The notes under the pieces were generated by a model, which had not been told where the DNA came from, did no database searches, and saw only the letters and a list, made by a program, of their open reading frames with translations. A stretch of 64,000 bases of DNA from IMG/VR virus record IMGVR_UViG_3300005602_000003, positions 878 through 64,877 of that record. One strand, 5' to 3'. Origin of the DNA: a virus. Its lineage: Duplodnaviria; Caudoviricetes. Below are positions 26,575 to 62,967 of the stretch, in pieces (position 1 is the first letter of the stretch; the number at the start of each line of letters is the position of its first letter). The position numbers were made by a program, and so were the translations under genes.

Positions 26575-26608
26575 AGGCCCCCGATGAGTGACGGATGGGG
26601 CATCACGG

Positions 26609-27706: not shown

Positions 27707-27717
27707 CGCGCTTCCTC

Positions 27718-28356: not shown

Positions 28357-28362
28357 GAGGAT

Positions 28363-41948: not shown

Positions 41949-42242
41949 TCACGGGCTGACCCGTCGTGCATAAATGAGCCCTATGGCCGGGTTGCTGCGC
42001 TCGGCGTCGAGTACAAAATTGGCTTGGCTGCCATCAGCGGTCTTGCACAGCACCGGCGAACCAGTCCGCATGGCCTGCTGGATGCCCCCCGCGGGGGCTC
42101 CGACGTAGTTCACGGACCCGGGCGGGTTGGTGGCCACGGCCACGGCGCCCTCGCCCACGGCCGTCGTATCCGGCAACGTGACGACCTGGCTCCCGTTGCC
42201 GCAACCCACTCCGTAGATCGTGGCTCCGAGCGTGTTCGTCAT
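41949..42242 (-). CDS. Small virion-module protein
   Basis: True start is MTNTLGATIYG (ATG 42242). Confidence 0.6.
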   Translation of the reverse strand: MTNTLGATIYGVGCGNGSQVVTLPDTTAVGEGAVAVATNPPGSVNYVGAPAGGIQQAMRTGSPVLCKTADGSQANFVLDAERSNPAIGLIYARRVSP

Positions 42243-42661
42243 CAAACCGCCGCGAGCTTGTCGATCGTTTCGAGCACAGCCAGCTTCGAGCCACCGACGA
42301 AGTGGACGATCGAGTGCTCGGGAACGGCCGGCTCCGCCTTGCGCGGCGCGACTGCCTCTAGGGCGGGCGCTGCCGGCGTATCCGGGACCTCGTCCACGGC
42401 CGGGAGAGCCACGACCTCGGGGATCTCGGGCACCACCACATTGCCGGACGCGTCCTTGACGGCCGGGACCGCGGGACGCCCCTCGACGGCGGGACGCGAC
42501 GGACGGCCGGCGATGAACTTGCGCTCGGCGACCGCCGGGGAACCGGGGTGTTCGGCCTTGGCCGGAGCCGCCGGCACATACTCCACCGTCAGCACGTTGG
42601 CGCTGTTGATGAGCTCCGACTTGCCGGTGTCTTTCCGAGTGACCTTGATCAACGTACCCAT
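42242..42661 (-). CDS. Small protein with Pro/Ala/Val repeat insert (FlbD-like termini)
   Basis: IKVTR...IN...VE [PAV repeats] SIVHFVGGSKLAVLET. Confidence 0.65.
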   Translation of the reverse strand: MGTLIKVTRKDTGKSELINSANVLTVEYVPAAPAKAEHPGSPAVAERKFIAGRPSRPAVEGRPAVPAVKDASGNVVVPEIPEVVALPAVDEVPDTPAAPALEAVAPRKAEPAVPEHSIVHFVGGSKLAVLETIDKLAAV

Positions 42662-42694
42662 GACAATAAACCTTTCTGGCCCGCCATCGGCGGG

Positions 42695-43882: not shown

Positions 43883-44935
43883 TTAAAACGCTGCCGCGCC
43901 GATGTTGTAAATGGCGGCGCCGGAAGACGACTTGGTGCAGACGTAATCGTAGCCGACCACCACGACACCTTGCTGCCCGATCTGTCCAAGCGGCACCAGT
44001 GAATAGAAGCCCGAAAAGTCGAAGGCCGCATCCTCGGACAAATACATCGACATGTACTTGACGTTCGGGAAATAGGCCGTGCCCTTCGGACAGAAGTGGT
44101 CCATGAAGATCGGGATGCCGGCAATATTGATGTTCGGGAACGATGACCGGACGGTCGTGTCCATGTTGTAGGACGCGCCGGGGTTGACGTAGACGTTCTC
44201 GGTCGCGATCAGCGAGTTGTTGAGCGTCGCGTAATCGCCCGGCGCCATGACGCCGAAAGTCGGAGCTTCGCCACCCGCCTTGTCGGTGATCTGAATCAGG
44301 GCGCTCGACATCGACTGCCGGTTGAACCCAACGGTCGCCGGGGACGTGGTGGCGCCCGTCGTGATCGTGTTGGCGTTGATGTACTGGCCCTGGAACGCCG
44401 AATTGCCGGCCGCGTTGCGGTTGATGCCGCCGTACGTCGCCACATTGGTGCCGTTGTCGAACGCGTTGTAGAACGAGTCCGGGAACAGCGGGTTGTTGGT
44501 GTTGTTGGTGAACGACAGCGTGGCCATCTGCTGGCGCGTCACCGCGTACACGTCGTTCATGCGCGCCTTGAGCAGGCTGATCTCGCGATCGGTAGCCTGC
44601 AAGACGGTTTCGCCGAACGGCAGCGGAACAGGGACGACCCAGTAGGCGAGGTTCCACTGGCCATTTTGAATCCCGGGCGTGATGACGGGGCTGTTGAATC
44701 CACCGCCGTAGCCGGTGAAAGAACCCTGCACCATCGAGTTCCCTTGCAACGGAACAGTAACCTGATTCAGACCACCGGCCGCGCGCTGCGCGTTGCCGGT
44801 CATGTAGAAAAGTGTGGGGCTTCCGAAGTATATTTGTACAAAAAGACGAGGGACGAAAGCCCTGCGTGTCACTGCGGCTAGTTCACTATAAAGTGAACCA
44901 GCAGAAGGGGCAACTCCAATTCCGGGAAGCGGCAC
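43883..44935 (-). CDS. Major capsid protein
   Basis: 350 aa; ELAAVTRRAF, YGGINR, IAGIPIFMDHFCP; AAGGAG RBS; follows the scaffold gene. Confidence 0.85.
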   Translation of the reverse strand: MPLPGIGVAPSAGSLYSELAAVTRRAFVPRLFVQIYFGSPTLFYMTGNAQRAAGGLNQVTVPLQGNSMVQGSFTGYGGGFNSPVITPGIQNGQWNLAYWVVPVPLPFGETVLQATDREISLLKARMNDVYAVTRQQMATLSFTNNTNNPLFPDSFYNAFDNGTNVATYGGINRNAAGNSAFQGQYINANTITTGATTSPATVGFNRQSMSSALIQITDKAGGEAPTFGVMAPGDYATLNNSLIATENVYVNPGASYNMDTTVRSSFPNINIAGIPIFMDHFCPKGTAYFPNVKYMSMYLSEDAAFDFSGFYSLVPLGQIGQQGVVVVGYDYVCTKSSSGAAIYNIGAAAF

Positions 44936-48079: not shown

Positions 48080-49795
48080 CTACTTATGCCCACCCGAGTG
48101 CTTGAACTTCTCGACCAGCAACTCGGGATGCTCCTTGAACAGCTTCTCCTGAGCTTCCTCGTGAGCCTTGTTCTGGGTCTTGGCCGTCTCCTTGTGCGGG
48201 ATCGGCGTGTTGTCGATGACGTGCTCGGCCTGCACCACCCCGGCTTTGAGCGCCGCGAATTCGAGCTGGGTATTCTCGTCCGTGAAGATCGGCGACGACG
48301 AGTGGCTGTCCACCGTGACACGCCAGTTCTCGCTGATGTCGGTCAGCAAGAAGCTGGACTCCTCGATCGTCGCGATCGAGGTGCCGTCGTACCAGTAGCG
48401 TGACGGGTCTTTGGCTTCCTTGAGCTGCAGCGTCAGCTCGGCTGCCTCGGCGGACTGGCCTTCGACCACCAGGGCGCGGTCGCGCAAAGTCGGCGACGCC
48501 ATCTTCTGCAGGCCGCTCGCATGCGCCTGCGACCGCACGCCCGGAGTGCCTTCGCCCTGCATGGCGGCCGGGAAGCCGCCCAGCTTGTCGATCTCCTCCA
48601 GGAGCCACTTGAGCAGTGGCAGCAACTCCGGCGGCACCTTCGGAGTCAAATCCTCGACCTTGCCGCCTTGGCCGAGATTGAAGTACCCGGCGTAACGCGC
48701 CGCCGCGTAGTTCTCATCCTGCATCGTGGTGTCGCCCGAGAACCCAAGGATCCGGTCGACCTGGAGACCCATCAGCCGCTTGGTGTCGCCGCACAGATCG
48801 GACAGGAAGCTCTGCGGCTCGATCAAATCGGCGAGCTCGGAACGGCCCCAGAACCAGTTCGTGACTTCGTTGGGCTGGATCACCCGGTACGGCTGAAGCT
48901 TGCTGTCCTTGATCAGCAGGTTCTGCTTCTTGCCGCGCGGTGCGATCAAGATGTCGGGCTCGACCAACTGGATGGTCGTATAGTCCCGGGTATCCTTGAC
49001 CCACAGTTCATGAAACTGAACCGTGTCAGCCATCACCACCGGTCCCATGATGGCGTAGTTCGGGTCGTTGCCGATCTGCACGATGCCGCCGGGCAACGGA
49101 CGCGTGGCGCCTTGCACGCCGGTCTGAAGCTGCGACGTGGACAGCACCTGATGGAAATAGGACGACGGTTCGGAGACGCCCGACTCGCCCTTCTGGGCGT
49201 GAGTCTTGATCTGACGGAAAAGCCTCTCGGCGTTGGGCATATGCCAGATGCGCTTCCACACCTCGGGCATCGTCAAGGTCGACGTTTCGAGCAGCGCCTC
49301 CTGCTTGTTGATGTCGTTCTCATCCTCGCGATAGACGCCGAACTGCCACGGCATCACCAGCTTGCGCTCGTAGGTGGTGTGCTCGTCAGGCGCCTCGCCC
49401 GTGGTCTCGCACCACTGCTTGAGAATCGCGATGCCGTACTTGAGCGAGTCGAAGACGCCGCGCGCGAACAGTTTGTCGGTCTTGGTTCGATCCCACTCGC
49501 GGGTCAGAATGTGCCCAACCTGCTGGGCCATCTTCTGCATGCGAGGCAGGATCGGGTTCTCGAAGTCGAGCGCGAACTTGAGCTCGACCGGGCTGAAGAT
49601 GTGCGACGCGGTGCGGTCGAGATCGCGGTACATCTTGTTGAGCAGCGACTTGGTGCCGTCATAGCGGCCGGTCTCCGCCATCACGTTCATGAGCCGGTAA
49701 TAGGCGCCGCGGCTGCCCTGGCTGACCTTGCAGGCTTCGATCAGCTCGTTCGCAAGGTCGAGAATTTCCTTTTCGTTGGACGGGACCGGGATCAT
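48080..49795 (-). CDS. Portal protein
   Basis: 571 aa between terminase and head genes; P22-like features (FWGRS, AMQGE..PGVRS). Confidence 0.85.
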   Translation of the reverse strand: MIPVPSNEKEILDLANELIEACKVSQGSRGAYYRLMNVMAETGRYDGTKSLLNKMYRDLDRTASHIFSPVELKFALDFENPILPRMQKMAQQVGHILTREWDRTKTDKLFARGVFDSLKYGIAILKQWCETTGEAPDEHTTYERKLVMPWQFGVYREDENDINKQEALLETSTLTMPEVWKRIWHMPNAERLFRQIKTHAQKGESGVSEPSSYFHQVLSTSQLQTGVQGATRPLPGGIVQIGNDPNYAIMGPVVMADTVQFHELWVKDTRDYTTIQLVEPDILIAPRGKKQNLLIKDSKLQPYRVIQPNEVTNWFWGRSELADLIEPQSFLSDLCGDTKRLMGLQVDRILGFSGDTTMQDENYAAARYAGYFNLGQGGKVEDLTPKVPPELLPLLKWLLEEIDKLGGFPAAMQGEGTPGVRSQAHASGLQKMASPTLRDRALVVEGQSAEAAELTLQLKEAKDPSRYWYDGTSIATIEESSFLLTDISENWRVTVDSHSSSPIFTDENTQLEFAALKAGVVQAEHVIDNTPIPHKETAKTQNKAHEEAQEKLFKEHPELLVEKFKHSGGHK

Positions 49796-50286
49796 CTACC
49801 GATCATCCGTTGAACCCGCGACATCGCCTGCGCGCCCGCGTGCGGCGTGTCATGGCCGACCACGCGGCCGTTCAAGGTGATCGAGCCATCCGCGACCCCG
49901 GCCGCTGCCTCCTTGCCCTGGAACTTCGGCCCGTTTTGCCCGACCGTGAGGCGGGCGGTCTCGGCCGCCACGGACGGCGCCGCGATCTCGCCCTCCTTGG
50001 TGTCGCGCAGGTTGGTAATCTTGAGGCCCGCCATGTCGGACACGTCGCAGCCCGCCATCTGGGCAGCCTGGTGCATGCGGTGCTCCGACGACTTCTCCAG
50101 GTCGCGGTAGACGCCGTCCGTAGCCGCCATGCGGGCAGAACGCAGGGACGGCATGACAACGTCATCGTCGGCCCGATCGTGCGCAGTGCGGTAGCCGCAG
50201 AGCGGGCAGTGTTCAGGCGTGCCGAGGGTGGGTTCCCACGGGAATTTCTTCTCGCACGAGGGGCAACGCATCGAGAACCTAGCCAT
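49792..50286 (-). CDS. Zinc-ribbon protein
   Basis: RCPSC...HCPLCG. Confidence 0.7.
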   Translation of the reverse strand: MARFSMRCPSCEKKFPWEPTLGTPEHCPLCGYRTAHDRADDDVVMPSLRSARMAATDGVYRDLEKSSEHRMHQAAQMAGCDVSDMAGLKITNLRDTKEGEIAAPSVAAETARLTVGQNGPKFQGKEAAAGVADGSITLNGRVVGHDTPHAGAQAMSRVQRMIGR

Positions 50287-52180
50287 ACCGCCATCTCGTT
50301 TTCTGCTGCATCCGTGCCGTATTCATGCGAACCGTCCGCTTCTCGGCGAAGAACTGGTCCAGATGGTTCTGGTTGAACAGCGCCACCTGATCCGTGATGC
50401 TCAGCCGTTTACGGGCGGCCTCCGACTCTCGGGTCATCTTGCGGGCGATCAGGTCGCGCCTAATCTTGGTTTCCCAGTAGTAGTTCGCCAGGGCGGCGGC
50501 GATGACCCGATCATCCTTCTTGGAGCCCTCGATCTTGTCGCCGTCGCGGGCCATTGTACGCATCTCATTGATCAGGTCAATGGAGCGGATATGCAGCTTA
50601 TCGCTCGAAATCGAGTCGCGGAGGCGCTCCATGATCAGGATCTTGGACTGCTGGCCGGTCTTGAAGTGATAGTTATGGCCGTGGCCAATCGCGTCGACCC
50701 TCGAATAAATATAGGCCGTTACGTTTCTAAAAATGTTGCGCAGGCCCTTCTCTTCCAGCGTCTTGAACTGGTAGCCGTTCTCGACCTGATACTTGACCGA
50801 CTTCAACTCGTCGACCACGGCTTGGCCGGGGCCGTTGAGCTCCATGATGTAGCGAACTTGACCGCCCCCTCCCGCGTACCAACCCAGGAGTCCGCATAGC
50901 GCCCACGCGAGCTGGCGCGTGGTGGCGAGCGGCCAAGCATACTCGGCGACCTGATCCATACCGTCTGAGTAGCAGCGGAAGACTTCGAGCGCCGAGCGGT
51001 CGTTATTCTCGTCCGCGCCGTGGGCCGGATCGCCACCAATGACATAGACGCCGTCCGGGTCGGGATCGGCAAACACCTTCAGCTCTGCCGACTTCATGTT
51101 GTCGGCTTGATAGACCCGGACCTCGGCGAACTCGGCGGTGCCTCGGAACATATAGCGGTTGAATTTCTTGGTGACGTATTTGTTGGTGATATTCGTCAGG
51201 TTCTCGCCCGAGAAGAACACGCTGCCAGTCTGCTGGAACGCGTCCTCGGCGGTCCACGGCTGCTCCTGCAGCCGCGTGGTGTTGCCGTCGAACTTGGGAT
51301 CGTTCTCGCCCTCCGACTTCGCGGCCGGGTCCATCTTGCGGCGAACCCAGGCGAGCTGCTCAGGGGTGATATCAAAATCGTAGAGATATTTGACCTCGGC
51401 GATCTTGGCCTGCTCCTTCTCGCTTGGCGGGAAGACGCCGTAGAGTTGGAAGTCGGGATGGTCGCGCTCGATGCGCTGGCTTTCCTTGCTCCAAAAACCT
51501 AAAAACACGGTTTTACAGTGCGCGGTATCGTCGACCGCCTCATCCCAAATATCGCTCCAAACCCCATAGCCACGAGCGGTCGACTCGTAGATATAAAGTC
51601 GCATCGGATGAACATCAGAGAACGCATTCTCCAGCACCTCGATGCCTTGCGGGTCGCCGAAGTTGCAAATTTCCGAAAGGTGACAAAGCGTCAAGTCGGT
51701 GGACGCGCCAAGGCTCTTGGTGCTAGCAGTCTTGCGCGAGCCGGCCGACATGAAGAGCAGCGTCGACTGATTCTGCAACATCAGCCCGTCGCGGTTGTTG
51801 CCTTTGATCTTGGGGAACTTGAGCGACGCCGGCAGGTTCTCGATGACAGACACCAGCTCCGTGCGGGCCTTGCTCTCGTTACGCGACGTGTCGAAGACCA
51901 CTGCGCCCTTGAGCCCGCCCACCATGCCTTGCAGGTAGACGACGAGGAGTCTGATAATCGAAGATATTCCGAGCTGCCGACTTTTGAGAACGTAGACTTT
52001 GTGGATATCGTCTTCCAATGCGTCGAAGATCGCACCAATCAGGAGCCTCTGCCCATAAAACAGATGCTCGCCGATACAGATTAGGCCGACGTGATCTTTT
52101 GAATTAATCTTTGATTCTTGTAGAAACGCGTAAAACCCGCTCTCAAGGCGGACGCGTTCGTCGTGGGACAGACCTGACAT
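50279..52180 (-). CDS. terL: Terminase large subunit
   Basis: VLKSRQLGISS, HLSE, YESTARG, YVIGGDPAHG, IMELNGPG, KDDRVIAAALA. Confidence 0.95.
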   Translation of the reverse strand: MSGLSHDERVRLESGFYAFLQESKINSKDHVGLICIGEHLFYGQRLLIGAIFDALEDDIHKVYVLKSRQLGISSIIRLLVVYLQGMVGGLKGAVVFDTSRNESKARTELVSVIENLPASLKFPKIKGNNRDGLMLQNQSTLLFMSAGSRKTASTKSLGASTDLTLCHLSEICNFGDPQGIEVLENAFSDVHPMRLYIYESTARGYGVWSDIWDEAVDDTAHCKTVFLGFWSKESQRIERDHPDFQLYGVFPPSEKEQAKIAEVKYLYDFDITPEQLAWVRRKMDPAAKSEGENDPKFDGNTTRLQEQPWTAEDAFQQTGSVFFSGENLTNITNKYVTKKFNRYMFRGTAEFAEVRVYQADNMKSAELKVFADPDPDGVYVIGGDPAHGADENNDRSALEVFRCYSDGMDQVAEYAWPLATTRQLAWALCGLLGWYAGGGGQVRYIMELNGPGQAVVDELKSVKYQVENGYQFKTLEEKGLRNIFRNVTAYIYSRVDAIGHGHNYHFKTGQQSKILIMERLRDSISSDKLHIRSIDLINEMRTMARDGDKIEGSKKDDRVIAAALANYYWETKIRRDLIARKMTRESEAARKRLSITDQVALFNQNHLDQFFAEKRTVRMNTARMQQKTRWRYG

Positions 52181-52211: not shown

Positions 52212-52499
52212 TCAACGTCTTTGCTGCACCCCAAAACCCTGCGGATTCCTGTTCTTCGCGTCCAGATCCTCCACGGCGTTCTCGATCCGCTTCTTGGCGG
52301 TCGCCCAGAACTGGACCACGTCGGCCGAGCCATCGAGCAGGAGGAACTCCACCGGGTCCCCACCCGCCGCAGGCGGGTAGATCACCACGGCGCCGCCGAA
52401 GGGCTGGTCCGCATTATGCTTGATCCGCTCCGCCATCTTGGTGAAGGCTTCGTCTGGACTTGCCCCGCTTTCGCGGGGTTCGACGAGAGGCTGGTTCAT
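52212..52499 (-). CDS. Hypothetical protein
   Basis: Coupled ORF upstream of terL. Confidence 0.65.
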   Translation of the reverse strand: MNQPLVEPRESGASPDEAFTKMAERIKHNADQPFGGAVVIYPPAAGGDPVEFLLLDGSADVVQFWATAKKRIENAVEDLDAKNRNPQGFGVQQRR

Positions 52500-52717
52500 C
52501 AGACATACCTATGCTGGTACTTCGGCTTAATTTCCGAGTGCAAATACCCGCCCACCGACGCGACCGCCCCGGAAGCCAGCATCTCGGCAGTCTCCTCGGG
52601 CACGCCCTCGTAGAGGCTGGTGCGGCCGTTCTGCCAGCGGATCGTCATGCCGCCACGTTCCTCGTCGTACCCGACCTCGGAGACGTGGGAGCTGTAGACG
52701 GATTTGGACCAGCTCAT
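52499..52717 (-). CDS. KTSC-domain protein
   Basis: SSHVSEVGYD...YEGVP...SVGGYLHSEIK. Confidence 0.9.
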   Translation of the reverse strand: MSWSKSVYSSHVSEVGYDEERGGMTIRWQNGRTSLYEGVPEETAEMLASGAVASVGGYLHSEIKPKYQHRYV

Positions 52718-53354
52718 GATGCCTCCTCCTGATCGGCAACTTCGCGATCTTTTTCAGAAACATGCTGGTCGTAGCCACGCATCAGGGCGTTCGCGAACCA
52801 TGTGATCATCCAGCCTTCGTCAAGCGGATTTCCCTCCGGGTCTCGATATCCAAGATCTTCGTTGGCTATCTTGCAGAACGCCTTGGCCCAGTCCTGGGCG
52901 TCGAAGGACGGCAGAGGCCAATCAGGACGTTCGTTATCGGGCCGCCCACTGGCGGCCCATTCTGCCTCAAAAGCAGCGTGATCACCGCCGAGAATTATCG
53001 GGTATCCATTGCTCATTGGCTGCCTTCCATGGTCTTCCGCGCTTCCTGCATCAACTCCTCTACAACCGGGAGAAGCGTGCCGTCGTCATCCTCGATCGTC
53101 TCGTCCGCATAGGCAAGCATGCCCAGCTTGCAAATCACCGGACGGGCCGGGTCGAACGCCGGATTGCCGGGCGGCACGCGCCAGAGAATCACCCGCCTTC
53201 TGGCGGGTTCGTGATCCCCGAGCGACCAGAACTCGCCCTTCATCTCGTCGCCGAACGGCTTGCGGATGTGGCTGCGCCGGTCGGGATGTGCCAGGAAGAA
53301 CGAGGCATCCTGCTTGTCGATCCAGGCTTGGGGGAGGTGTACGTCGTCAGCCAT
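52714..53354 (-). CDS. Two hypothetical proteins (52714-53016, 53013-53354)
   Basis: Overlapping start/stop coupling. Confidence 0.6.
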
Positions 53355-53482
53355 GGCGGGCTTCCAATTCCTTGATCCGCTTGGACGCGGCTTCCAACAT
53401 CTCGCGATCGTCGCAAGCTTTCAAGTCATAATCGCCCACGGACAGCATCTGCTTGAGTTTGAAGTCCAGTTCACGCGCCCGG

Positions 53483-53863
53483 CTATCTAACTTTTCGGTC
53501 AAGGTTGCCATGACAGTCGTATCCTACACCTGTGGCAGAAATAGTCACCGGGATCGAAACGAACTTCGCCGCCAATTCTTCGGCCCGCCTTTTCAATTCT
53601 GTCCGGCGGCGCGCAGTCATAGGCCGCCATTGCAAGCTAGAATTGCACGCCCCGTTCGAATGTGGCTGCTTCCCCACGTCGTTTACATAGGTGACGTGCG
53701 GCTCTTTCGTCAGTTGCCAAACAGGTCCAACGTACGCATCCTGAGCCCACCAAGCAGAGCTATACGACGGCTCCAGACCATACGAGCATTTGATCTCGAT
53801 CTCGGAACCGTCGCGTGGAGCCGAATTCATGTCCTGCCACGCGTTGCCACCAAAGATGCTCAC
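53483..53863 (-). CDS. DUF551-like phage protein
   Basis: WQDMNSAPRDGSEI...QWRPM. Confidence 0.6.
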   Translation of the reverse strand: MSIFGGNAWQDMNSAPRDGSEIEIKCSYGLEPSYSSAWWAQDAYVGPVWQLTKEPHVTYVNDVGKQPHSNGACNSSLQWRPMTARRRTELKRRAEELAAKFVSIPVTISATGVGYDCHGNLDRKVR

Positions 53864-55299
53864 GCTGCCCTCCTGTGTTCCTTAACCTTCTGCGCAAGTG
53901 CGCCGACGATACGCTCGAACACTTTCTCCCAACTTCGCGTCTTGTCCTGCGGGAAAACCCGGTGGTTCGGATACCAGAGAACGTCTTTTCCGTCCACGCC
54001 AAGGCGATAATCTCGGCCTAGGTAGCTGTAAGGCACCCAGCACTCCTTGCCGACCAGTCCGCAGATATGCGCGAGCGCGGACTCGCAGCAAATCACCAAG
54101 TCGAGACCCTTGAGGAGCGCGGTGGTATCCGAAACATCAGAGATGAATGGCGACAGATCCTTGACCAGCCCGGACATCGCGGTGGTGTAGAGGTCGCCCT
54201 TGCGCTGGCTGCCCGGCGAGTCCACCTGCAACGAGTAGAGCTGCACGCCAGCCACCCGATAGAGTTCCAAGAAGTGCTCGACCGGGATGCTCCGGTGGCG
54301 GTCGATGTCGTTCTGAGGCGAACCCGCCCAGGCGATGCCGACGTGAAGCTTCTGGTCCGGCACCTTCCAATCGGAGCGGATCGAGTAGTCCGGGTAGGAG
54401 ATGTGTGGCGTGTTGCGGATTTCCTCGTCGGTCAGGTCGAGCGCCGCCGGGAGACTGATGAAGGTCGACCAGTAATCAGCGGCCGGGAACGGCGTCGTGG
54501 GCTGGAACGGAATGATGTTGACGTTGGGCAGGCGCATGAACGCGTGCTGGAACACGCGCATGAGCTGCTCCTGAACGTAAAGATGCACATAACGGGCTCG
54601 CCCCGCGGCAGCGGGGACGAACCGAGCGAACGACAGCGTGTCGCCGAGACCCTGGTCGGCCTGGATGAACACCTGCGCGTCCCTCTGGCCTTCCCAGCGC
54701 GGGTAGGGGTACGACAGGAAGTTCTTCAGCCGGTATTCGAACCGAACTTCCATCTCCTTGAAGCCCTTGGCGAGCTGGCGGTCGAAGATCAGCGCGAGCG
54801 CGAGGCCGAACCGGAAGTTGGAACGGTGTATCCCGTCGCCTTCGAGCTCGATCGCCTTGCGCCAGCAGCCTACGGCTGCCGAGGTGTCGCCCAGGTCGCC
54901 GTGGACCAGCGCCAGGTCGGCCCACGGGTTGGCCATGTCGGGGTCGATGCTCAAAGCCTCCTTGGCGCAGGCGAAGGCTTCCTCGGTCTCGCCCAGATCA
55001 CGCAGGCGCCAGCCGAGGTTCGAGAGAATTTCGGCCTTGCGAGTGGGCGCGGGGTTGCAACGAAGAGCGCGGCGCCATGCCGCGACCGCGGCCTTGAGGG
55101 CGTAGATGTCGGACACGCGGTTGCCGTACTGGAACAACGGCTCGTCCCAGGTCGGATCCGCCCAGATGGCGGAGGAGAAGAACTGGAACGCCAGCTTCCC
55201 GGCTTCCGGCCCCGCTGACGCGGGGTTGCCCGGCGTCATGCACTGGACGGCCTGATTGAACAGCTTGACGGCGGCGGCGCGGTCACCCATTAAAGCCAC
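53860..55299 (-). CDS. TPR-repeat glycosyltransferase (GT-B, GT9-like C-terminus)
   Basis: N-terminal TPRs; DQGLGDTLSFARF, VGIAWAGSP, RSIP, YSLQ, LDLVICCESALAHICGLVG. Confidence 0.88.
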   Translation of the reverse strand: MALMGDRAAAVKLFNQAVQCMTPGNPASAGPEAGKLAFQFFSSAIWADPTWDEPLFQYGNRVSDIYALKAAVAAWRRALRCNPAPTRKAEILSNLGWRLRDLGETEEAFACAKEALSIDPDMANPWADLALVHGDLGDTSAAVGCWRKAIELEGDGIHRSNFRFGLALALIFDRQLAKGFKEMEVRFEYRLKNFLSYPYPRWEGQRDAQVFIQADQGLGDTLSFARFVPAAAGRARYVHLYVQEQLMRVFQHAFMRLPNVNIIPFQPTTPFPAADYWSTFISLPAALDLTDEEIRNTPHISYPDYSIRSDWKVPDQKLHVGIAWAGSPQNDIDRHRSIPVEHFLELYRVAGVQLYSLQVDSPGSQRKGDLYTTAMSGLVKDLSPFISDVSDTTALLKGLDLVICCESALAHICGLVGKECWVPYSYLGRDYRLGVDGKDVLWYPNHRVFPQDKTRSWEKVFERIVGALAQKVKEHRRAA

Positions 55300-55468
55300 T
55301 TCCTGATTGTAAATCGGCGCACAAGAAAAGGGACGCCCGTGAACAAGACGCCAATCGTTATCGCGCCAAGAGCGCTACGATAATTTCCGTCATATATACG
55401 CGCCGCGGCCCACCCCCACGACATAGACCCTGTCATGGCCGCCCGAAAGATACTGAACTCTCGCTCCG

Positions 55469-56257
55469 TCACGCCGCTACCTCCCCTTGCCCCGCGTCAG
55501 CGGGGTCCGGGTTCAGCCCGCGGGCGCGGGCCGCTTTGATCAACACTTCGATCTGCACCAGCTTGGTGAAGGGCTTGCCGGTGCGGTCTTTCATCGCTGG
55601 ATCGTTGTTGAGCCAGCGACGAACATAGAGCCGAATGTCGCCAGCATCCCGGTGGCAGCCGTTGTGCAAATTCCACGACGGGAAAGCCGCGACTGCGTTC
55701 TGAACCCTCGTCAATACATCCTGCTCATAAGGATCGGGTTCCAACAATGAGAACTTCCCTTTGCCAACCTTGCGATAGCCATAGGGCACATTGCCGATAC
55801 AGCCCTGACGTTCGCGCTTGAGTGTGCGGCCCTCGCCCATGCGCTGGTTGATCCGCATCCGCTCGAAGTCGGCGACGCCTGACAAAATTGTGAATACCAG
55901 CTTGCCGACCATCGAGTCGGCGATCGGCTCGTAGCCGAAATCCGCGATGATGACGCCGATGCCGCGGTCGGTCAGATCGTCGATCATCGCCAGTGCGTTG
56001 CGAGCCGAACGGAACAAACGATCGAGCTTGGACGCCACGATGATATCACCGCGCTTGGCGTGCTCCAGCATCTCCTTCCCGGCCGGACGTTCGGCGAGCG
56101 GCTTGGCCCCGGACACGGCATCGTCCGTGAAATACGCAATATCGAACGCCTCGACTCCGCGCGCCATCGCCACCGACTTGATCTTGCGGCTCTGCTCCTC
56201 ACGCGTCCCGCCGTCATCTTGCCCCTTCGTGCTCCATCGGCTGTACCCGAGCAACAT
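55469..56257 (-). CDS. Serine recombinase (resolvase/invertase family)
   Basis: GYSRWST, DDAVSG, RP, VASKLDRLFRS, FER..I..R, GNVPYGY; AGGAGGGG RBS. Confidence 0.9.
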   Translation of the reverse strand: MLLGYSRWSTKGQDDGGTREEQSRKIKSVAMARGVEAFDIAYFTDDAVSGAKPLAERPAGKEMLEHAKRGDIIVASKLDRLFRSARNALAMIDDLTDRGIGVIIADFGYEPIADSMVGKLVFTILSGVADFERMRINQRMGEGRTLKRERQGCIGNVPYGYRKVGKGKFSLLEPDPYEQDVLTRVQNAVAAFPSWNLHNGCHRDAGDIRLYVRRWLNNDPAMKDRTGKPFTKLVQIEVLIKAARARGLNPDPADAGQGEVAA

Positions 56258-56343
56258 CGATCCCCTCCTGCGTGTCTTAAGGAAGCGGATCTTTGCTTCC
56301 CGTCTCTGTGTCCGCCAGTTTGTAGTCACTTTTACTACCGGTG

Positions 56344-56673
56344 TCAACCCGCCTTTCGGCGGGCACGGACTTTCTTTTTCCGCCGGAAGGCCCGCTTCTT
56401 TTTGGGCTTCACCTCGGACGCGTTCCTCGAAGCAAAACCGCCACGCGCTTCGTGGATAATATCGCTGATGAACGACGGCAGCGGGTTCACGATCGGCTGC
56501 AAAGCATCAGGCGACACCGACACTTTGAAATGCTCGACCAAGGCATCCAGCTTCCACTGAATACCCCGGACCACGTGCTTGATCGAGTCGAGATCCTGCC
56601 CAATGCCGGCGCGGTAGCCGGCTTCCTGAACAAGGAATTTCCTAACGGCTGGCGGCAATCTTGACGGCGCCAT
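56344..56673 (-). CDS. Hypothetical protein with basic C-terminal tail
   Basis: Ends KPKKKRAFRRKKKVRARRKAG. Confidence 0.55.
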   Translation of the reverse strand: MAPSRLPPAVRKFLVQEAGYRAGIGQDLDSIKHVVRGIQWKLDALVEHFKVSVSPDALQPIVNPLPSFISDIIHEARGGFASRNASEVKPKKKRAFRRKKKVRARRKAG

Positions 56674-57646
56674 CTTGCTTCTCCTTTGCTACCTGCTCGG
56701 CCACCCAGGCGTAGAGCTTCCGCAACCCCTCGTAAAGCAGCGCGGATGGCGCCCAGCCGAGCTTCTCCTTGATCAGGTCGTTATTCGAGGTTCTGCCGGC
56801 GACGCCGAGCGGCCCCGGGATGTGCTTGATAGCGATGCGCTTGCCGGCTATGTCCGCCGTCAGGCGGACGAGGTCGTCGATCGAGATCATTTCGCTGGAG
56901 CCGAGGTTGACCGGTCCCGCGAAATCCGACTCCATGAGTCTTCGGATGCCGTCACAACACTCGTCGACGTAGAGGAACGATCGAGTCTGGGTGCCGTCAC
57001 CAAAGACTTCGACTTGCCCGCCTTCGGCGGGTGCTTCTGCCACCTTTCGGCAAATTGCCGCTGGTGCTTTTTCTCGACCACCTGTCCAAGTACAGAATGG
57101 ACCAAACACATTATGCAGCCGAGCGACACGAATGCTAAGAGAACAATTGCGTGCGAATGCGTCATAGAGCTTCTCCGCGAACAACTTTTCGAGACCGTAG
57201 GCGCTGTCGGGACGAGCGGGCCATGCCATATCCTCGCGCAGCTCACAGTGATCCGAGTTCATCTGGATGAAGTCCGGGTAGATGCAGGCGCTCGACGAGA
57301 AGAACACCTTCTTGACCTTCGCCTTGACGCAAGCCTCCAGCACGTTGAGATTGATCAGTGCCGAGTTGGCCATGATCGTGGCGTCATTCTGGCCTGTGAA
57401 AATGTACTCGGCGCCCCCCATCTCGGCGGCGAGGCTGTAGACTTCGTCACCCGGCCGGAACATCTGCTGCCAGAAGCCCATGCGGAAGCGCAGATCAGTG
57501 AGCTCGAACTCGTCGGCCGCGGTCGGTTCGAACTCGGGCATCTTGCGATCGATGCCGAGCACGCTGTAGCCGTCTTGCTTGAGGCGCTTGACGAGCGCAG
57601 AACCTATAAATCCGCCCGCGCCCGTCACAATCGCTGATTTACTCAT
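56642..57646 (-). CDS. GDP-mannose 3,5-epimerase-like NAD-dependent epimerase
   Basis: GAGGFIG, LAAEMGG, FSSSACIYP, YGLEK, HNVFGP, GGREKAPAAICRK, GDGTQTRSF, GPLGVAGR. Confidence 0.9.
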   Translation of the reverse strand: MSKSAIVTGAGGFIGSALVKRLKQDGYSVLGIDRKMPEFEPTAADEFELTDLRFRMGFWQQMFRPGDEVYSLAAEMGGAEYIFTGQNDATIMANSALINLNVLEACVKAKVKKVFFSSSACIYPDFIQMNSDHCELREDMAWPARPDSAYGLEKLFAEKLYDAFARNCSLSIRVARLHNVFGPFCTWTGGREKAPAAICRKVAEAPAEGGQVEVFGDGTQTRSFLYVDECCDGIRRLMESDFAGPVNLGSSEMISIDDLVRLTADIAGKRIAIKHIPGPLGVAGRTSNNDLIKEKLGWAPSALLYEGLRKLYAWVAEQVAKEKQDGAVKIAASR

Positions 57647-57857
57647 CCGTTTTTCCCTCTCGCCTTGCTATTTCCCGATCAAGATACCAACGGGCTTTCT
57701 TCAAATCCTCGATCGCATCGCCCTTCAAATCTGCCCGCCAAATATATTTGACTGCGTTACCGAGATTGAAGCCCATGTGCTCCGTGATCTGGATACATTC
57801 GACCCCACTCGGATGCCGAGTGTAGTGCGCAGGATGATTGACCGGATCGTCGGACAT
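57639..57857 (-). CDS. DUF3310 (T7 gp1.7 nucleotide kinase-like) protein
   Basis: VNHPAHY...ECI...FNLGNAVKYIWR...EDLKKARWYL. Confidence 0.9.
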   Translation of the reverse strand: MSDDPVNHPAHYTRHPSGVECIQITEHMGFNLGNAVKYIWRADLKGDAIEDLKKARWYLDREIARREGKTDE

Positions 57858-57858
57858 C

Positions 57859-59115
57859 TTACACCGGCGGAAGCGAAGAATGATCGAACCGGAACGACGA
57901 CAGCCACGGCTGCGTCTCGCGACACTGGATGCCATGGAACGTACAGCCCGGCGTCAGGGCTTCAATCCGAACGTTCCGATAGCTGACGCCGCTCGGGACC
58001 ACAAGCTGGCTCACCCCGCGATCGCGGGGTAAATCGGGCGCGATCTGGTAGCCGGATGCTAGGTCGGTCACTCGGAACCTGCCGGGGCCTTGGACCGTGA
58101 ATTCGCAAGGGCCGAGGATGGGTACTTCCAACCACGGTGGCGGGCCATTCGTGCTGTCGGTCGACTCGGGCACGTTGCCGGCCTTCCACCCGAACGGTCC
58201 CCAGCCTTGACTGTTCACTAATCGCCAGTCGCCCGAGTAGATGCCGCCGATGCCGGGGATCTGGTGCGGGAAAACCACGCTCCCATTCGATGAAGCCAGC
58301 AGGCGCTCGGCGCCTCCGCCATAGGTCTTGATGCCGTTTCGGATCGCGTAAGTGTGCCGAATGAAGTTGTCGAACGCGTCGTCGTTCCGCAGCAAGTCCA
58401 TCCTGCCGTCCGCCATCTTCAACCCTTGGGCCGCGATGTCCTGATCGAGCATGGTGGCGAGCGAAGGTGTGAGGGCGAGACTGGCAAGACCGTGCTTGGC
58501 CAGGATGGCGTCCCAACTCCAGTCACTCGTCAGCGGCTGCTCGCCGCCGCGAAAGGCCCACCAGGCGCCGATGTCGAGGCCGGTGAGCTGGACGAAGACC
58601 TGACGGTTCTCGGTAGTCCAGCCGGTACGGTAGTGGTCCAGGATGATCTTGGCGGCGCGACGGGTGAAGATGACCATCCCGGCGCCGAGGTTGTGGAAAA
58701 TTCCATAGCCGTCGCGTTGGATCAACAGGCGATCCTCGTACGAGCGGGCGGAGACGGCGCCGACTTCGAGGCCGTCATCCTGACCACGCGCGAAGAGCGC
58801 CATCGTGGTCGGATACCACGTAGGCTCAAGCAGCACGTCGTTCTCGCACAGCCCGACGAACGCATAGTCCGCGTTTTCCAACATCTTGGTCAGGGCGTAG
58901 ACGATCGCAGCGTCGGCGCCGCCGTGGACGTTCACGAACATGGCGTGGAACGCAGACCCGTATTCCTTGGAGATCATGTCGGCGTTCTTCGGCGAGCTCC
59001 CGTCAACCCAGAAAATATCCAGCCCGCCGCCGGATGCGCCGAGCAGCGGGGTAACGGAACGGCGCGTGCAGTCGACCCGGTCCTTGGTGAGGAAGCTGAC
59101 CGCGACTTTGCTCAT
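57859..59115 (-). CDS. GT-A fold glycosyltransferase-like protein
   Basis: Start MSKVAVSFLTKDR; WVDGS, LCENDVLL (xND) and SDW motifs. Confidence 0.7.
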   Translation of the reverse strand: MSKVAVSFLTKDRVDCTRRSVTPLLGASGGGLDIFWVDGSSPKNADMISKEYGSAFHAMFVNVHGGADAAIVYALTKMLENADYAFVGLCENDVLLEPTWYPTTMALFARGQDDGLEVGAVSARSYEDRLLIQRDGYGIFHNLGAGMVIFTRRAAKIILDHYRTGWTTENRQVFVQLTGLDIGAWWAFRGGEQPLTSDWSWDAILAKHGLASLALTPSLATMLDQDIAAQGLKMADGRMDLLRNDDAFDNFIRHTYAIRNGIKTYGGGAERLLASSNGSVVFPHQIPGIGGIYSGDWRLVNSQGWGPFGWKAGNVPESTDSTNGPPPWLEVPILGPCEFTVQGPGRFRVTDLASGYQIAPDLPRDRGVSQLVVPSGVSYRNVRIEALTPGCTFHGIQCRETQPWLSSFRFDHSSLPPV

Positions 59116-60152
59116 AGCACTGTCTCCAGGTCGTCCAAGAACGCGAGGGCGGCTTCGATCGTGCTGGTCGGCCAAAACGACTCGGAGTTGGAACAGAAAA
59201 ACACATGCCTGACGAGGTCGAGAGTCGGTTGCGGACAAGGGAACTCGTGGGCGTCCAGCCAGTCGGCGAGGCGGGCGACGTTCTCCATGCCGTCGATCTC
59301 GCCGCGAAGATCCTTCACGAGATCGTGCTTATTCCTCTCCTGATACGCGAAGGGTCGGCCGAAGTGTGTGACGTATCCCTTTTCGCGCATGACACGCTGC
59401 ATGATCAAGCTGGCGTAGATGTCGTCATAACGGCCGACGCCGGGCAGCATGAAGAACGCGGGCGCGAGTTCGCGCACGAACGCGGTGTTCTGCGAGTTGG
59501 TGATCGTCCAGGTGTCTTTGGGGTCGACCACGAAACCGGACTTGAGAACTTCGTCCACCCGCCTGACGGCGGGCGAGCGGACGATGCGCTCGACCGCGGA
59601 GGTGTCGGGATCGCCCAGGATCATGCCTTGGGCCAAACCGATCTCGGCGTCGACCACGGGGGTGAACGTAGCTTGCCCCGCTGACGCGGGGTCGATCGGG
59701 AAGCCGCGCTGCGTTGCCGGAGGCGTGAGGAACTGGCCGGGGTCGAGCCAGCCGGATGGAGAAGAGGCTTGGAGGCCGGAAAACGGCTTGGCATACGTGT
59801 CGAGTAAAAATTGAAACTGAAGAAAGTAATTCGGGTCCATCGGGATGTTGTCGTCATCGATACTGATGATCACATCCGCGCCCCACCCCAAGGCTTCGAG
59901 CACCGCGATGTTCCGGCGCTGGATGCAACTCCACGGAATCAATTCACAACATTTATAACCGAGGGACTTCTGCCTTTCGGGCGGATACCATTCCGTGTTC
60001 GACAGGTTCGTGCAAAAATTGTACGTATCCACGATCGGAGACTTCTCGTCACCCACACAAAAAAACCTCACGCTTGCAGCCGGATCAAAGCGCCTAAAAA
60101 GTGCAAGCACTGTGGGCACGTTTATCGTCGTGAGAATCAGCGCCGTTTTCAT
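59112..60152 (-). CDS. RGP/STELLO (DUF288, GT75)-like protein, possible NDP-sugar pyranose-furanose mutase
   Basis: LTTINVP, VGDEKSP, RRNIA, IDDDN, RGFP, GDPDTSA, NSQNT, GRYDDI, QERNKHDL.KDL..E. Confidence 0.8.
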   Translation of the reverse strand: MKTALILTTINVPTVLALFRRFDPAASVRFFCVGDEKSPIVDTYNFCTNLSNTEWYPPERQKSLGYKCCELIPWSCIQRRNIAVLEALGWGADVIISIDDDNIPMDPNYFLQFQFLLDTYAKPFSGLQASSPSGWLDPGQFLTPPATQRGFPIDPASAGQATFTPVVDAEIGLAQGMILGDPDTSAVERIVRSPAVRRVDEVLKSGFVVDPKDTWTITNSQNTAFVRELAPAFFMLPGVGRYDDIYASLIMQRVMREKGYVTHFGRPFAYQERNKHDLVKDLRGEIDGMENVARLADWLDAHEFPCPQPTLDLVRHVFFCSNSESFWPTSTIEAALAFLDDLETVL

Positions 60153-60510
60153 ATGTGCCTCCACATCTGTCCGTGACGTATTCGGCTAATGACTGAAGTC
60201 GCTACGCCGTAGCGCCTCGCTAGAATCACGCCCTTGGCCGAAGATCGTTTAATCCGCTTAACCTTCGCTTCAGTCAATTTTGCCATCGCGTTACGCGATC
60301 CAGGCTGGGAATTTTTCCCGATCATATTTCTGTAAGATTTCCAACCGAGGACATGAATCGCATGCAACGTCTGTTCGCGGTGCGTAGCTAACTCCAAATT
60401 AGAGAGCGCATTATTCTTTCGGTTTCCGTCTTTGTGGTTGATTGTCAAATCATCAGGAATTTCGCCCTTGAAATGAAACCATACAAGCCGATGAACGGAA
60501 GCTGTAGCAC
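60149..60510 (-). pseudogene. 5'-truncated HNH endonuclease
   Basis: VHRLVW...INHKDGNRKNNALSNLE plus HTH tail; the upstream part of this frame overlaps the 60445-60693 gene and has no credible own start. Confidence 0.6.
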
Positions 60511-60693
60511 GGACCCCGTCAAGCGCCATCCCTCGATAACGCAGCTTTTCGAGTCGCCATCCGTCACCCACGAGCACTCGTAGTTGATCGCGTCTCTGGC
60601 CCGCCATGTCACTGCCGTCACGACGGCAGTCAGATGCTGGTCGGCGTCGATGTGAACCTTGTCGCCGATGTCGAAGTCAGACTCGATCTTCAT
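60445..60693 (-). CDS. Small SH3-like phage protein
   Basis: FDIGDKV...V.AV...YECSW; GGGGGAG RBS. Confidence 0.6.
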   Translation of the reverse strand: MKIESDFDIGDKVHIDADQHLTAVVTAVTWRARDAINYECSWVTDGDSKSCVIEGWRLTGSVLQLPFIGLYGFISRAKFLMI

Positions 60694-60880
60694 TAGCTTT
60701 CTCCCCCTCGGATTCACCTGCCCCCGCCTGCGGCTCGCCCGCCAGTCGGCGGGACCACTGATCGAAAATATCCCGCATCATCCACGACATGGACCGCCGC
60801 TGCCGCTTCGCTTCCTTGCGCACGGCGGCGCGCATCTCGCGGGAGAGGCGGACGGTCGTGGGAAAATCTGAAAGTCCCAA
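60677..60880 (-). CDS. Ribbon-helix-helix (Arc/CopG-like) regulator
   Basis: PTTVRLSREMRAAVRKEAKRQRRSMSWMMR. Confidence 0.8.
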   Translation of the reverse strand: MGLSDFPTTVRLSREMRAAVRKEAKRQRRSMSWMMRDIFDQWSRRLAGEPQAGAGESEGEKANEDRV

Positions 60881-61041
60881 GTGTTTGATCCGCTAGTTCA
60901 ACCCGCTGACGCGGGTCAAGGAAAACGACCGGACGAGCCTCGCGAGGGGGTTTGGGGGGAGCAAAACCCGTCCGGCCGTGTCGCCTGTTCCCCACATCTC
61001 GCCCGCCTCTCGGCGGGTGAACGTGCAGGTGACAGACAGGG

Positions 61042-61069
61042 AGTGTAGTAAGAAAGAATACAAAGTCAA
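61042..61069 (-). promoter_or_regulatory. Sigma70-like promoter upstream of the RHH/glycosylation/terminase run
   Basis: Minus strand TTGACT-16 nt-TACACT. Confidence 0.55.
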
Positions 61070-61105
61070 GTGCCGTAGATGCTCTCCCATTTTGACTGAA
61101 TCAGT

Positions 61106-62625: not shown

Positions 62626-62967
62626 CTAGGCGGGCTCCAGCTTCTTCGGCGCTTGACCCGCGTCAGCGGGTTGGACCGGCACGAGCATCTCGGTGAAAAT
62701 GCCGATGTCGGTTTTGCGGATAGGACGGAAACGGCGACTTCCAAACGAAGGCTCCTTCTCACGCACGACTCCGTCAGGGCAGGTATACATACGCGTCTTG
62801 TTTATGATCTCTTCGACGTACACCCCCAACTCGAATTCCGATTCAAACCCGCGAATTGTGTAAATGCGCCCTTCGACAGGCAGAATCTCGTCGCCGTAAC
62901 CCGGACTACGCTCAGGAGGCGGAGGCCGCCCGTCTATGCACACCACCTGCTGCCCGATCTCGAACAT
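62626..62967 (-). CDS. Conserved phage hypothetical protein
   Basis: FEIGQQVVCID...GRIYTIR...RFRP...TDIGIF. Confidence 0.75.
   Translation of the reverse strand: MFEIGQQVVCIDGRPPPPERSPGYGDEILPVEGRIYTIRGFESEFELGVYVEEIINKTRMYTCPDGVVREKEPSFGSRRFRPIRKTDIGIFTEMLVPVQPADAGQAPKKLEPA

Follow-up and report, generated by a model that had tools for sequence, protein, structure and literature searches.

The pyranose-furanose mutase MtdL, a member of glycosyltransferase (GT) family GT75 that acts on guanosine diphosphate (GDP)-L-galactose as well as GDP-L-fucose, converts GDP-L-Galp to GDP-L-Galf in the A201A antibiotic pathway, in which GDP-mannose 3,5-epimerase (GM35E) activity is also described (PMC6678494, PMC9937993). 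L-Gal is a substrate for both MtdL and Hyg20, plant GT75 enzymes act on uridine diphosphate (UDP)-L-Ara and UDP-D-Gal, and GT75 enzymes glycosylate a conserved Arg of their own (PMC9937993). We found a homologue of MtdL and a GDP-mannose 3,5-epimerase (GME) in a 64,000-nucleotide stretch of phage DNA (hereafter the window; bases 878-64877 of the 64,877-bp IMG/VR virus record IMGVR_UViG_3300005602_000003; Duplodnaviria, Caudoviricetes), together with a glycosyltransferase of GT-A fold and a protein that joins tetratricopeptide repeats (TPR) to a GT9-like glycosyltransferase domain. We tentatively propose that these genes form a conserved phage glycosylation module of soluble enzymes, which would lead from host GDP-mannose through GDP-L-galactofuranose to a cytoplasmic protein acceptor, likeliest a virion protein; we give this reading slightly less than an even chance.

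Virion glycosylation is known from the capsids and tails of mycobacteriophages and from the capsid glycans of chlorovirus PBCV-1, which has virus-encoded GDP-sugar enzymes. These systems share with the proposed module the concept of virus-encoded transferases, accompanied or not by enzymes that convert nucleotide sugars, acting on structural proteins in the cytoplasm, but the enzyme families differ, and the module here is known from its genes alone. To our knowledge, no GT75 mutase or TPR-GT9 protein has been described in the known virion glycosylation systems. A phage-borne GME or GT75-like gene amid sugar genes, as here, is also found in the cyanophages S-SCSM1, in which the GME is annotated as ORF123 (PMC9602691), and S-T4; their clusters are large and loose, lie in T4-like genomes, and have neither a TPR-GT9 gene nor a fixed place beside the terminase. 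GT75 is also named among soil-phage glycosyltransferases (PMC12016548). In the literature covered, which leaves out most subscription journals, there was no account of the syntenic module, of a GT-A protein outside the known families, of a TPR-GT9 partner or of paired GT75 active-site states.

The four enzymes of the module are encoded as follows:

59112-60152, minus strand: GT75/RGP-like protein, 346 residues from the ATG at 60152, by homology to MtdL
57859-59115, minus strand: GT-A glycosyltransferase, 418 residues, by predicted fold
56642-57646, minus strand: GME, an extended short-chain dehydrogenase/reductase (SDR), 334 residues, by its match to PDB 2c59 (E 1.4e-94)
53860-55299, minus strand: TPR plus GT9-like GT-B glycosyltransferase, likely start ATG at 55290

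The match of the GME to the Arabidopsis GME 2c59 was followed by one to 8sg0 (E 4.9e-92), and the next family was MoeE5 at 4.4e-25. When the 2c59 alignment was read against PMC8787198 (SEQRES positions equal the literature numbers +2), all eight signature residues, S143, C145, Y174, K178, N203, K217, R243 and R306, proved to be conserved in the phage GME. They include the catalytic triad S143/Y174/K178, seen in SAC and YGLEK next to the Gly-rich NAD motif GAGGFIG, and the acid-base pair Cys145/Lys217 with Arg306, of which the Lys lies in GGREKAPAA and the Arg in GVAGR. Lys217 (His in GMER) and Arg306 (rather than Lys) are described as separating GME from GDP-fucose synthase (PMC8787198). NCBIfam held no matching equivalog, its best profile being Fcl with 109 bits against a cut-off of 500. 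Judged by its residues, the GME assignment is secure. No sugar-1-phosphate nucleotidyltransferase, phosphomannomutase or phosphomannose isomerase was found by Pfam among the 96 open reading frame (ORF) translations scanned (17 at E ≤ 0.01 and 79 at E ≤ 0.001) and, since all three are missing, the phage needs host GDP-mannose. The cluster appears to convert host GDP-mannose with no sugar activation, and the original prediction of a self-contained sugar activation cluster was overstated in both terms. Its proposal of an unusual L-sugar fared better: the neighbour of the GME is homologous to the GDP-L-galactose mutase MtdL, an indication of L-galactofuranose.

The GT75-like protein aligned over residues 73-306 with the MtdL sequences of PDB entries 7yua/7xpr (deposited as 'Transglycosylse'), with E 2.5e-26. 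Among the candidates scored there were 614 GT75 homologues, and many of the best 120 carry PF03214 (RGP) or PF03385. The plant RGP/UAM proteins (UDP-L-arabinopyranose mutases) and STELLO share this PF03214/PF03385 family signal and the conserved self-glycosylated Arg; RGP/UAM differ in their use of UDP-sugars and their Golgi-associated complexes, and the window protein itself falls below the Pfam thresholds. We compared active-site residues across 40 phage sequences, namely the window and the 39 loci described below, with residue roles taken from PMC9937993. The window protein shares with MtdL and Hyg20 not only overall homology and linkage to GME but also the DxD motif, Arg159 and Asp260, proposed as nucleophile and base respectively, and Asp195, Arg257 and Gln229. 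R159, D195, R257, D260, R289 and D111 were kept in 40 of the 40 sequences, and Q229 and D109 in 39, the exception being locus L030. The core chemistry of MtdL (Arg nucleophile, Asp base) thus appears retained, with metal binding and sugar contacts altered. We infer mutase activity from this homology and regard the protein as a predicted metal-dependent nucleoside diphosphate (NDP)-pyranose mutase. In contrast to the antibiotic pathway of MtdL, the phage GT75 is paired with two transferases. A predicted complex of the GT75-like and GT-A proteins gave a score of 0.04 and a mark of 0.32, which weighs neither for nor against binding.

The GT-A protein had no Pfam, PHROG or NCBIfam match and stands outside the curated sequence families (PF00535 and the like). 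Its AlphaFold model, with a predicted local distance difference test score (pLDDT) of 92.1 and a predicted template modelling score of 0.92, showed a GT-A fold over approximately residues 1-260, followed by a C-terminal β-sandwich at approximately 270-418. Foldseek placed GnT-I (1fo8, E 1.5e-9, probability 1.0) first, followed by SpsA, TarP and LH3. In the VIA comparison, chlorovirus hyaluronan synthase 8snc (Z 15.7, root mean square deviation (rmsd) 4.6 Å, 206 residues), GnT-I 1fo9 (Z 14.8, rmsd 3.0 Å, 187 residues), the fucosyltransferase WrtF (Z 14.3) and GlfT2 (Z 13.0) were near tied, and residues 275-405 matched the β-sandwich of the CE2 esterase 2waa (Z 11.4). A fold search of BFVD with the same model returned generic viral GT-A proteins only. 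E91 and D93 were invariant in 41 GT-A sequences and may constitute the acidic metal motif (DxD/ExD). Of 8,000 candidates scored, 714 were relatives; the top 120 share 45-59% identity from end to end, all lack a Pfam domain, and contigs of 56-68 kb carry many of them. When a profile built from 41 members was run against 1.84 billion cluster representatives, just 308 matched, 176 of which reached E ≤ 1e-30.

OGT and SPINDLY (SPY) of family GT41 and Caulobacter FlmG, a TPR plus GT-B flagellin O-glycosyltransferase (PMC7591256), have an N-terminal TPR superhelix followed by a GT-B region, as does the TPR-GT9 protein of the phage; FlmG is likened here by description only. SPY uses GDP-L-fucose, the 6-deoxy form of L-galactose (title of PDB entry 8dti). 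The phage protein has Pfam TPR matches, and its model (pLDDT 94.8) showed the TPR superhelix at approximately residues 1-190 and a two-lobed Rossmann domain at approximately 194-476. SPINDLY and OGT were the top Foldseek matches (E 3e-12), with poor global superposition (rmsd 13-22 Å). The catalytic half is much smaller than that of OGT and SPY (~285 residues) and alone fits GT9 best: residues 194-476 matched TibC 4rap (Z 16.0, rmsd 3.4 Å, 245 residues), Veillonella GT9 3tov (Z 16.0), WaaF 1psw (Z 15.9) and WaaC 2h1f (Z 14.8) by VIA, so that the protein heptosyltransferase TibC was tied with lipopolysaccharide (LPS) heptosyltransferases as the best match. The GT-B fold is therefore shared with the GT9 enzymes TibC/AAH and WaaC/WaaF (Z 14.8-16.0 over 234-252 residues), from which the phage protein differs in its TPR fusion, in having no Pfam GT9 match and in belonging to a phage without an ADP-heptose pathway. 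Glyco_transf_9 is carried by 26 of the 30 nearest ESM-Atlas clusters, with PF01075 on 43-57% of neighbour members, and bacterial proteins of similar structure are TPR-glycosyltransferase fusions. By its model, the protein has an architecture like that of OGT, SPY and FlmG with a GT9-like catalytic lobe. Among 8,000 candidates scored, 806 relatives were found, at ~50% identity and on contigs of 60-68 kb. Periodic TPR Asn residues (N60 and N94; the consensus N128 is Asp in the window) were considered as a counterpart of the OGT asparagine ladder and were not used as evidence; such Asn residues are also part of the general TPR consensus.

A scan of IMG/VR with the GT75 alignment gave 39 loci, of which 37 belong to the same phage clade (contigs up to ~68 kb); 32 of these 37 span GT75 through TerL and are the basis of the counts that follow. 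The order GT75, GT-A, SDR, recombinase, TPR-GT9, terminase and the strand were the same in all 32. GT-A was present in 32 loci, TPR-GT9 in 31, the SDR in 30 and a serine recombinase in 26; of the smaller genes, KTSC was present in 31, the 95-residue ORF in 29, the 113-residue ORF in 24, HNH in 2 and the 109-residue ORF in 2. DUF3310, which had been counted as a member of the cluster, was present in just 1 and is an accessory passenger outside the conserved module. The SDR was of GME type in 10 loci, another extended SDR in 20 and absent from 2. The GME-type SDRs are 41-64% identical to the window GME (L016 against PDB GMEs, E 8.5e-62), and the others 24-30%, with the 4-epimerase-like 8vr2, 6wjb and 6zl6 as best solved relatives (E 1e-19 to 1e-24). 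Since the epimerase slot is exchangeable and the three transferase-fold proteins are constant, the sugar would vary and the machinery would not. SDR type clusters on the trees, with 6 changes on the GT75 tree against 14.0 when shuffled and 7 against 14.2 on a quick GT-A tree; this is expected from shared descent and is uninformative on co-adaptation. The relatives were binned in metagenome-assembled genomes (MAGs) of Acidobacteriota, Verrucomicrobia, Solirubrobacteraceae, Hyphomicrobium and Patescibacteria, a range too mixed for a host call.

The same parts occur beyond this clade. On a 232-kb phage contig of 31% GC (L039), a GME (53% identity) lies directly upstream of a GT75-like gene, in a glycan cluster that also has methyltransferases, a GDP-mannose 4,6-dehydratase and several transferases. 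The GT-A alignment, run against a single genome for each prokaryotic species, found 10 loci: 4 were phage-like contigs binned into MAGs, 5 lay in large contigs or a chromosome, and the remaining one, L046, is a GT75-GT-A pair on a short contig of an Acidobacteriota MAG. A chromosomal contig of Terracidiphilus (L045) carries GT75, GT-A and then GME at 55% identity, and genes for GT75, GT-A and a 490-residue GT9-domain protein lie amid housekeeping genes on a 1.9-Mb alphaproteobacterial chromosome. Three Acidobacteriota contigs have GT-A followed by GT75; of these, L048 has a separate 231-residue TPR protein ahead of GT-A/GT75, and in L049 the longer GT-A ORF, judged from its length only, may include a TPR domain. 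Thus GT75 plus GT-A plus a TPR and/or GT9 element, with an optional epimerase, is a recurring unit in cells and phages; in the loci examined it had no membrane partners and no obvious acceptor gene adjoining it. At L045 we also observed a GH95 glycoside hydrolase (960-3515, minus strand); it is two genes away from the GT75-GT-A-GME island, and an EamA transporter gene lies in between. GH95 includes α-L-fucosidases and α-L-galactosidases.

In the mechanism that we propose, the epimerase would turn host GDP-D-mannose into GDP-L-galactose, with GDP-L-gulose as a side product, a step that the residue comparison supports well. The GT75-like protein may then contract the ring to give GDP-L-galactofuranose, with its conserved Arg as nucleophile and Asp as base and in the manner of MtdL in the A201A pathway; homology and gene linkage are the basis of this step, and the GME-GT75 linkage recurs in the window, L039 and L045. 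The GT-A protein with its β-sandwich and the TPR-GT9-like protein, as modeled, would transfer sugar to a cytoplasmic acceptor. The former, whose gene is joined to that of GT75 by an ATGA overlap, would use the labile furanose donor, and the latter would add a sugar, from a donor that we leave unspecified, to the same acceptor. In the weakest step, the acceptor would be a protein bound through the TPR domain, likeliest a virion protein from the same leftward gene string. The C4-OH of the pyranose, close to the catalytic Asp, has been argued to decide which sugars ring-contract (PMC9937993). L-Gal made by a GME would qualify as a substrate of this kind. If the second SDR type is a 4-epimerase, for which it is a candidate, this logic would cover both SDR types. 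UDP-L-Ara and UDP-D-Gal are 4-epimerase products.

As for the acceptor, the four module enzymes have no transmembrane-grade segment, which argues for a cytoplasmic one, and no Gtr (GtrA, GtrB, GtrC), Wzx or Wzy family was found among the 96 ORFs. The bacterial islands, in which housekeeping genes surround no more than GT75, GT-A and one protein with TPR or GT9, fit this location. By analogy, the TPR domain, the precedents of OGT, SPY, FlmG and TibC and the position within the packaging/head string would favor a protein and, next, a virion protein. A narrower form of the proposal is a three-enzyme cytoplasmic furanosylation in a large clade of uncultivated soil phages: an exchangeable epimerase would supply a galacto-NDP-sugar, a GT75 in whose metal site Ile/Gln jointly take the place of Asp87/His287 would contract it to the furanose, here GDP-L-galactofuranose, and the GT-A protein with its β-sandwich and TPR-GT9 would attach it to virion proteins. 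We regard this form as rather unlikely.

A number of observations weigh against the proposed route from GDP-mannose to a furanosylated virion protein. The GT75-like protein is ~30 residues shorter than MtdL, and three of its positions depart from it. Asp87 of MtdL corresponds to Ile77 in the window; of the 40 sequences, 34 have I, V, L or in one case C at this position and 6 have Asp. The Mn2+ ligand His287 corresponds to Gln271 in the window and is Gln in the same 34 of 40, with His in 6. Mutating D87 or H287 abolishes the activity or the metal binding of MtdL, and Asp87 corresponds to Ser in active plant GT75 enzymes (PMC9937993). Asn42, a guanine contact in MtdL, is Lys in the window; among the other GDP-selecting positions Thr13 is kept and Ser86 is Cys, and nucleotide preference is not readable from them. 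With D87, H287 and N42 changed, the GT75-like protein could be a transferase or bind another sugar or nucleotide. Its Pfam STELLO score was 23.8 bits, below the cut-off of 27.8, and the TPR protein had no Pfam Glyco_transf_9 match at E ≤ 0.01. The same type of GT75 stands beside a non-GME SDR in 20 of the 32 spanning loci and beside no SDR in 2; its function is therefore not tied to GDP-L-galactose. L030 (10001-15083) lacks the SDR, the recombinase and TPR-GT9, has a GT75 changed at D109, N112 and Q229 and a GT-A on a long branch, and looks like a module in decay, so that the module is dispensable. Ser plus Thr make up 20-27% of five fibre/structural proteins, 15.4% of the major capsid protein, 12.7% of the GT-A protein and 9-12% of the replication and packaging proteins and the other three module enzymes. 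The original prediction had pointed out these Ser/Thr-rich structural proteins correctly; the content of the fibre-like proteins is compatible with a virion target but unspecific. Ser/Thr-rich fibres are common in phages generally. The GT9 fold, whose best-known representatives are the heptosyltransferases of the LPS core, fits a host-envelope target, and gene packing is all from which co-transcription with the late genes would be read.

The residues at positions 87 and 287 vary together: 34 of the 40 sequences pair a hydrophobic residue with Gln, and the minority of 6 (L022, L024, L027, L035, L036 and L037) keeps the Asp and His of MtdL along with changes at three further positions. From this pairing, the GT75 family of these phages has two coupled active-site states. 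His263 was considered as a possible substitute metal ligand in the Gln-type proteins; it covaries within the clade and is Ile in the jumbo-phage homologue that also has Gln.

The acceptor is where the alternatives part from our proposal. The module could remodel a host envelope glycoconjugate, such as the LPS core, the capsule or another cytoplasmic-face glycolipid, with the GT9-like domain working on a lipid-linked acceptor, and so block superinfection or keep progeny off debris. The catalytic half of TPR-GT9 does match WaaF, WaaC and 3tov as well as TibC, and its nearest Atlas clusters carry Glyco_transf_9; bacterial GM35E has been proposed to serve LPS synthesis (PMC6678494), cyanophage glycan clusters are usually read as host-surface modifiers (PMC9602691), and the GT75-like gene of S-T4, annotated as hypothetical, lies amid heptose-nucleotide genes and glycosyltransferases. 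However, we found no membrane protein, flippase, polymerase or lipid-carrier transferase in the module or among the 96 ORFs scanned, the bacterial islands lie outside polysaccharide loci, and the phage genes sit within the packaging/head string rather than among early or lysogeny genes. A TPR fusion is also unusual for LPS core enzymes. We consider an envelope target plausible but rather unlikely. A cytoplasmic acceptor other than a virion protein is in our view doubtful too; candidates would be a host protein, modified for takeover or anti-defence, a phage protein outside the virion structure, a soluble small molecule, or the self-glycosylating Arg of GT75 as primer of a glycan. The GT75/GT-A(/TPR or GT9) islands on Acidobacteriota and Alphaproteobacteria contigs have no phage structural genes nearby and, isolated as they are in bacterial chromosomes, suggest that the acceptor may be something that cells also have. 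The self-glycosylated Arg of GT75 (PMC9937993) is invariant in the phage sequences, and the occurrence of TPR fused to GT9, probably fused to GT-A (L049) or alone (L048) would fit an adaptor for a common partner. Yet the place immediately upstream of the terminase/head genes is conserved in 32 of 32 loci, no neighbourhood examined holds a candidate host target, and the bacterial islands, with HNH or integrase genes close by, may derive from phages.

T-even phages glucosylate or arabinosylate hydroxymethylcytosine, and phage DNA glycosyltransferases are soluble, as the module enzymes are predicted to be. A comparable modification of the phage DNA would suit a module that adjoins packaging genes in a phage with its own polymerase, primase and Dam-type methyltransferase. 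We nevertheless hold it to be very unlikely. In agreement with the original prediction, which had recognised no base hydroxymethylase, thymidylate-synthase-like or TET/JBP gene, Pfam revealed no thymidylate-synthase-like hydroxymethylase, dCTPase, dNMP kinase or TET/JBP family among the 96 ORFs; with this hydroxymethyl-base pathway not found, no hydroxyl-bearing base would be available. The same module also occurs in bacterial chromosomes and, as far as we know, none of the known DNA glycosyltransferases has a TPR domain or a GT9 or GT75 fold.

The genome that carries the module has direct terminal repeats and is rated complete (64.9 kb); the window is nearly all of it, and the stretch is present in at least three soil metagenome runs, whereas no RNA run was found to contain it. 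One arm encodes a Prim-Pol primase, a family A DNA polymerase, an SNF2 helicase, an exonuclease and a Dam-type methyltransferase, and genes for packaging, head, tail, fibres and lysis follow one another in a long series on the minus strand. Only 4 terminase relatives were found by tblastn among 50,697 phage records, at 31-35% identity, and 2 of the 4 are annotated as terminase large subunit; relatives this few and distant place the phage far from any cultured phage. The other features around the module are as follows:

60881-61105, minus strand: intergenic gap of 225 nt before the ribbon-helix-helix (RHH) gene, containing a weak match to a sigma-70 promoter and two stem-loops
61002-61022 and 60896-60920, minus strand: the stem-loops in this gap
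60680-60880, minus strand: RHH (CopG-type) regulator, first gene of the leftward string (Pfam RHH_1, E 2.3e-7)
60445-60717, minus strand: 90-residue ORF
60149-60607, minus strand: HNH endonuclease, probably of the free-standing homing type (Pfam HNH_3, E 1.2e-15; PHROG 59)
57639-57857, minus strand: DUF3310 protein (Pfam, E 2e-15)
56344-56673, minus strand: 109-residue ORF with a polybasic Lys/Arg C-terminal tail, no family match in Pfam, PHROG or NCBIfam
55469-56257, minus strand: small serine recombinase of the resolvase/invertase type (Pfam Resolvase, E 2e-28; PHROG 95/125), its ORF open up to the TTG at 56347
55290-55472, minus strand: 60-residue ORF with one hydrophobic helix (KD19 score 1.96), no Pfam match
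52212-53863, minus strand: six small ORFs including a KTSC-domain protein
50279-52180, minus strand: large terminase, downstream end of the conserved string, by tblastn
48080-49795, minus strand: portal

The five genes named in the original prediction (RGP/STELLO-like, GT-A, DUF3310, GME and TPR-glycosyltransferase) are all at the coordinates given and on the minus strand, the RHH regulator was recovered, and the co-orientation with the packaging genes holds for terminase and portal. That gene list was correct as far as it went; it left out the serine recombinase, the ORFs at 56344-56673 and 55290-55472 and the HNH gene. The module genes are tightly packed, and the HNH/GT75 and GT75/GT-A junctions are both ATGA start/stop overlaps. 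The single promoter that had been suggested was not borne out: the candidate at 61069-61042 (TTGACT, 16 nt, TACACT), within the gap before the RHH gene, belongs to a class of sigma-70-like sites that is not above chance (6 against 4.9 ± 2.4 expected in shuffled sequence), and one promoter for the string is an anatomical guess from its only sizeable gap. HNH genes also lie at varying spots around GT75 (L004, L013, L029 and L033) and beside bacterial GT75/GT-A islands (L047:6360-6920 and L049:8699-9079), which hints that homing endonucleases move with, or mobilise, the glycosylation module. Relatives of the 109-residue ORF are found between GT75 and GT-A in L035, L036 and L041, and the 60-residue ORF had no counterpart in the relatives by tblastn.

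A stem-loop motif, CCCGCC-N4-GGCGGG followed by TGAAC, had 16 matches (≤ 2 mismatches) in the window against 0.03 expected in shuffles, some of them being both strands of one site. The sites are at 8486-8753, 14859, 20474, 30621, 53187, 56343, 59553-59578, 60733, 61002, 61799, 62614 and 63092; several are at gene ends and several are intragenic, including within the GT75 gene. Possible roles for the motif are those of a terminator specific to the phage, an element for RNA stability or an operator. Another family of palindromic stem-loops (CTTGACCCGCGTCAGCGGGTCAAG-like) is found at 55485-55504, 60896-60921 and 62652-62676. Two of its copies form a 20-nt inverted repeat (55485-55504 / 60902-60921) flanking the stretch from RHH to the recombinase, and an invertible segment between them was considered and found unsupported; the orientation of the repeat is undefined because each arm is itself a palindromic stem-loop and a third copy lies at 62652-62676. 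No attachment or inversion sites were identified for the serine recombinase, which may serve in integration, dimer resolution or inversion. The major capsid protein is encoded at 43883-44935, fibres at 22396-30393 and small conserved proteins at 52212-53354. Elsewhere in the window, two ORFs overlap in different frames (41949-43766 and 42695-43870, both minus strand); the former, of 605 residues, is rich in Arg, Gly and His, contains 6% Ser plus Thr and looks like a shadow ORF of the latter, a 391-residue structural protein. The structural proteins at 37303-39600 and 42695-43870 (minus strand) have repeated Gly/Ser/Thr-rich motifs of the type 'NPG-x-GY ... VT', and the one of 765 residues is similar in part to PHROG 460 (head closure) and to PHROG 701 (virion structural protein). 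The early region encodes a Lar-type restriction alleviation protein (15929-16156, plus strand) and a YspA/SLOG-family (YAcAr) protein (17784-18191, plus strand), and the Dam-type methyltransferase is at 1209-1694 (minus strand); these genes suggest anti-restriction functions.

The combination of a GT75-type mutase homologue, a transferase outside the known families and a TPR-GT9 fusion has not previously been described together. The module is compact and syntenic and, by sequence search, widespread in soil metagenomes, with 614-806 relatives per gene among the candidates scored, many of them on contigs of 60-68 kb. Glycosylation of virions by phages affects immune recognition, stability and host range and is known from few systems. 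If the mutase reading is true, the module would offer a small natural enzyme set for NDP-furanoses and L-galactosides, and a testable system for target choice by a TPR-fused transferase. The paired variants, Asp/His and Ile/Gln, are a natural experiment on the poorly understood mechanism of GT75. Should the narrower furanosylation form hold, it would give the first NDP-pyranose mutase of a virus and the first L-galactofuranose in a protein glycan, and the GT75/GT-A/TPR islands of bacteria would represent the same protein-glycosylation system in its cellular form.

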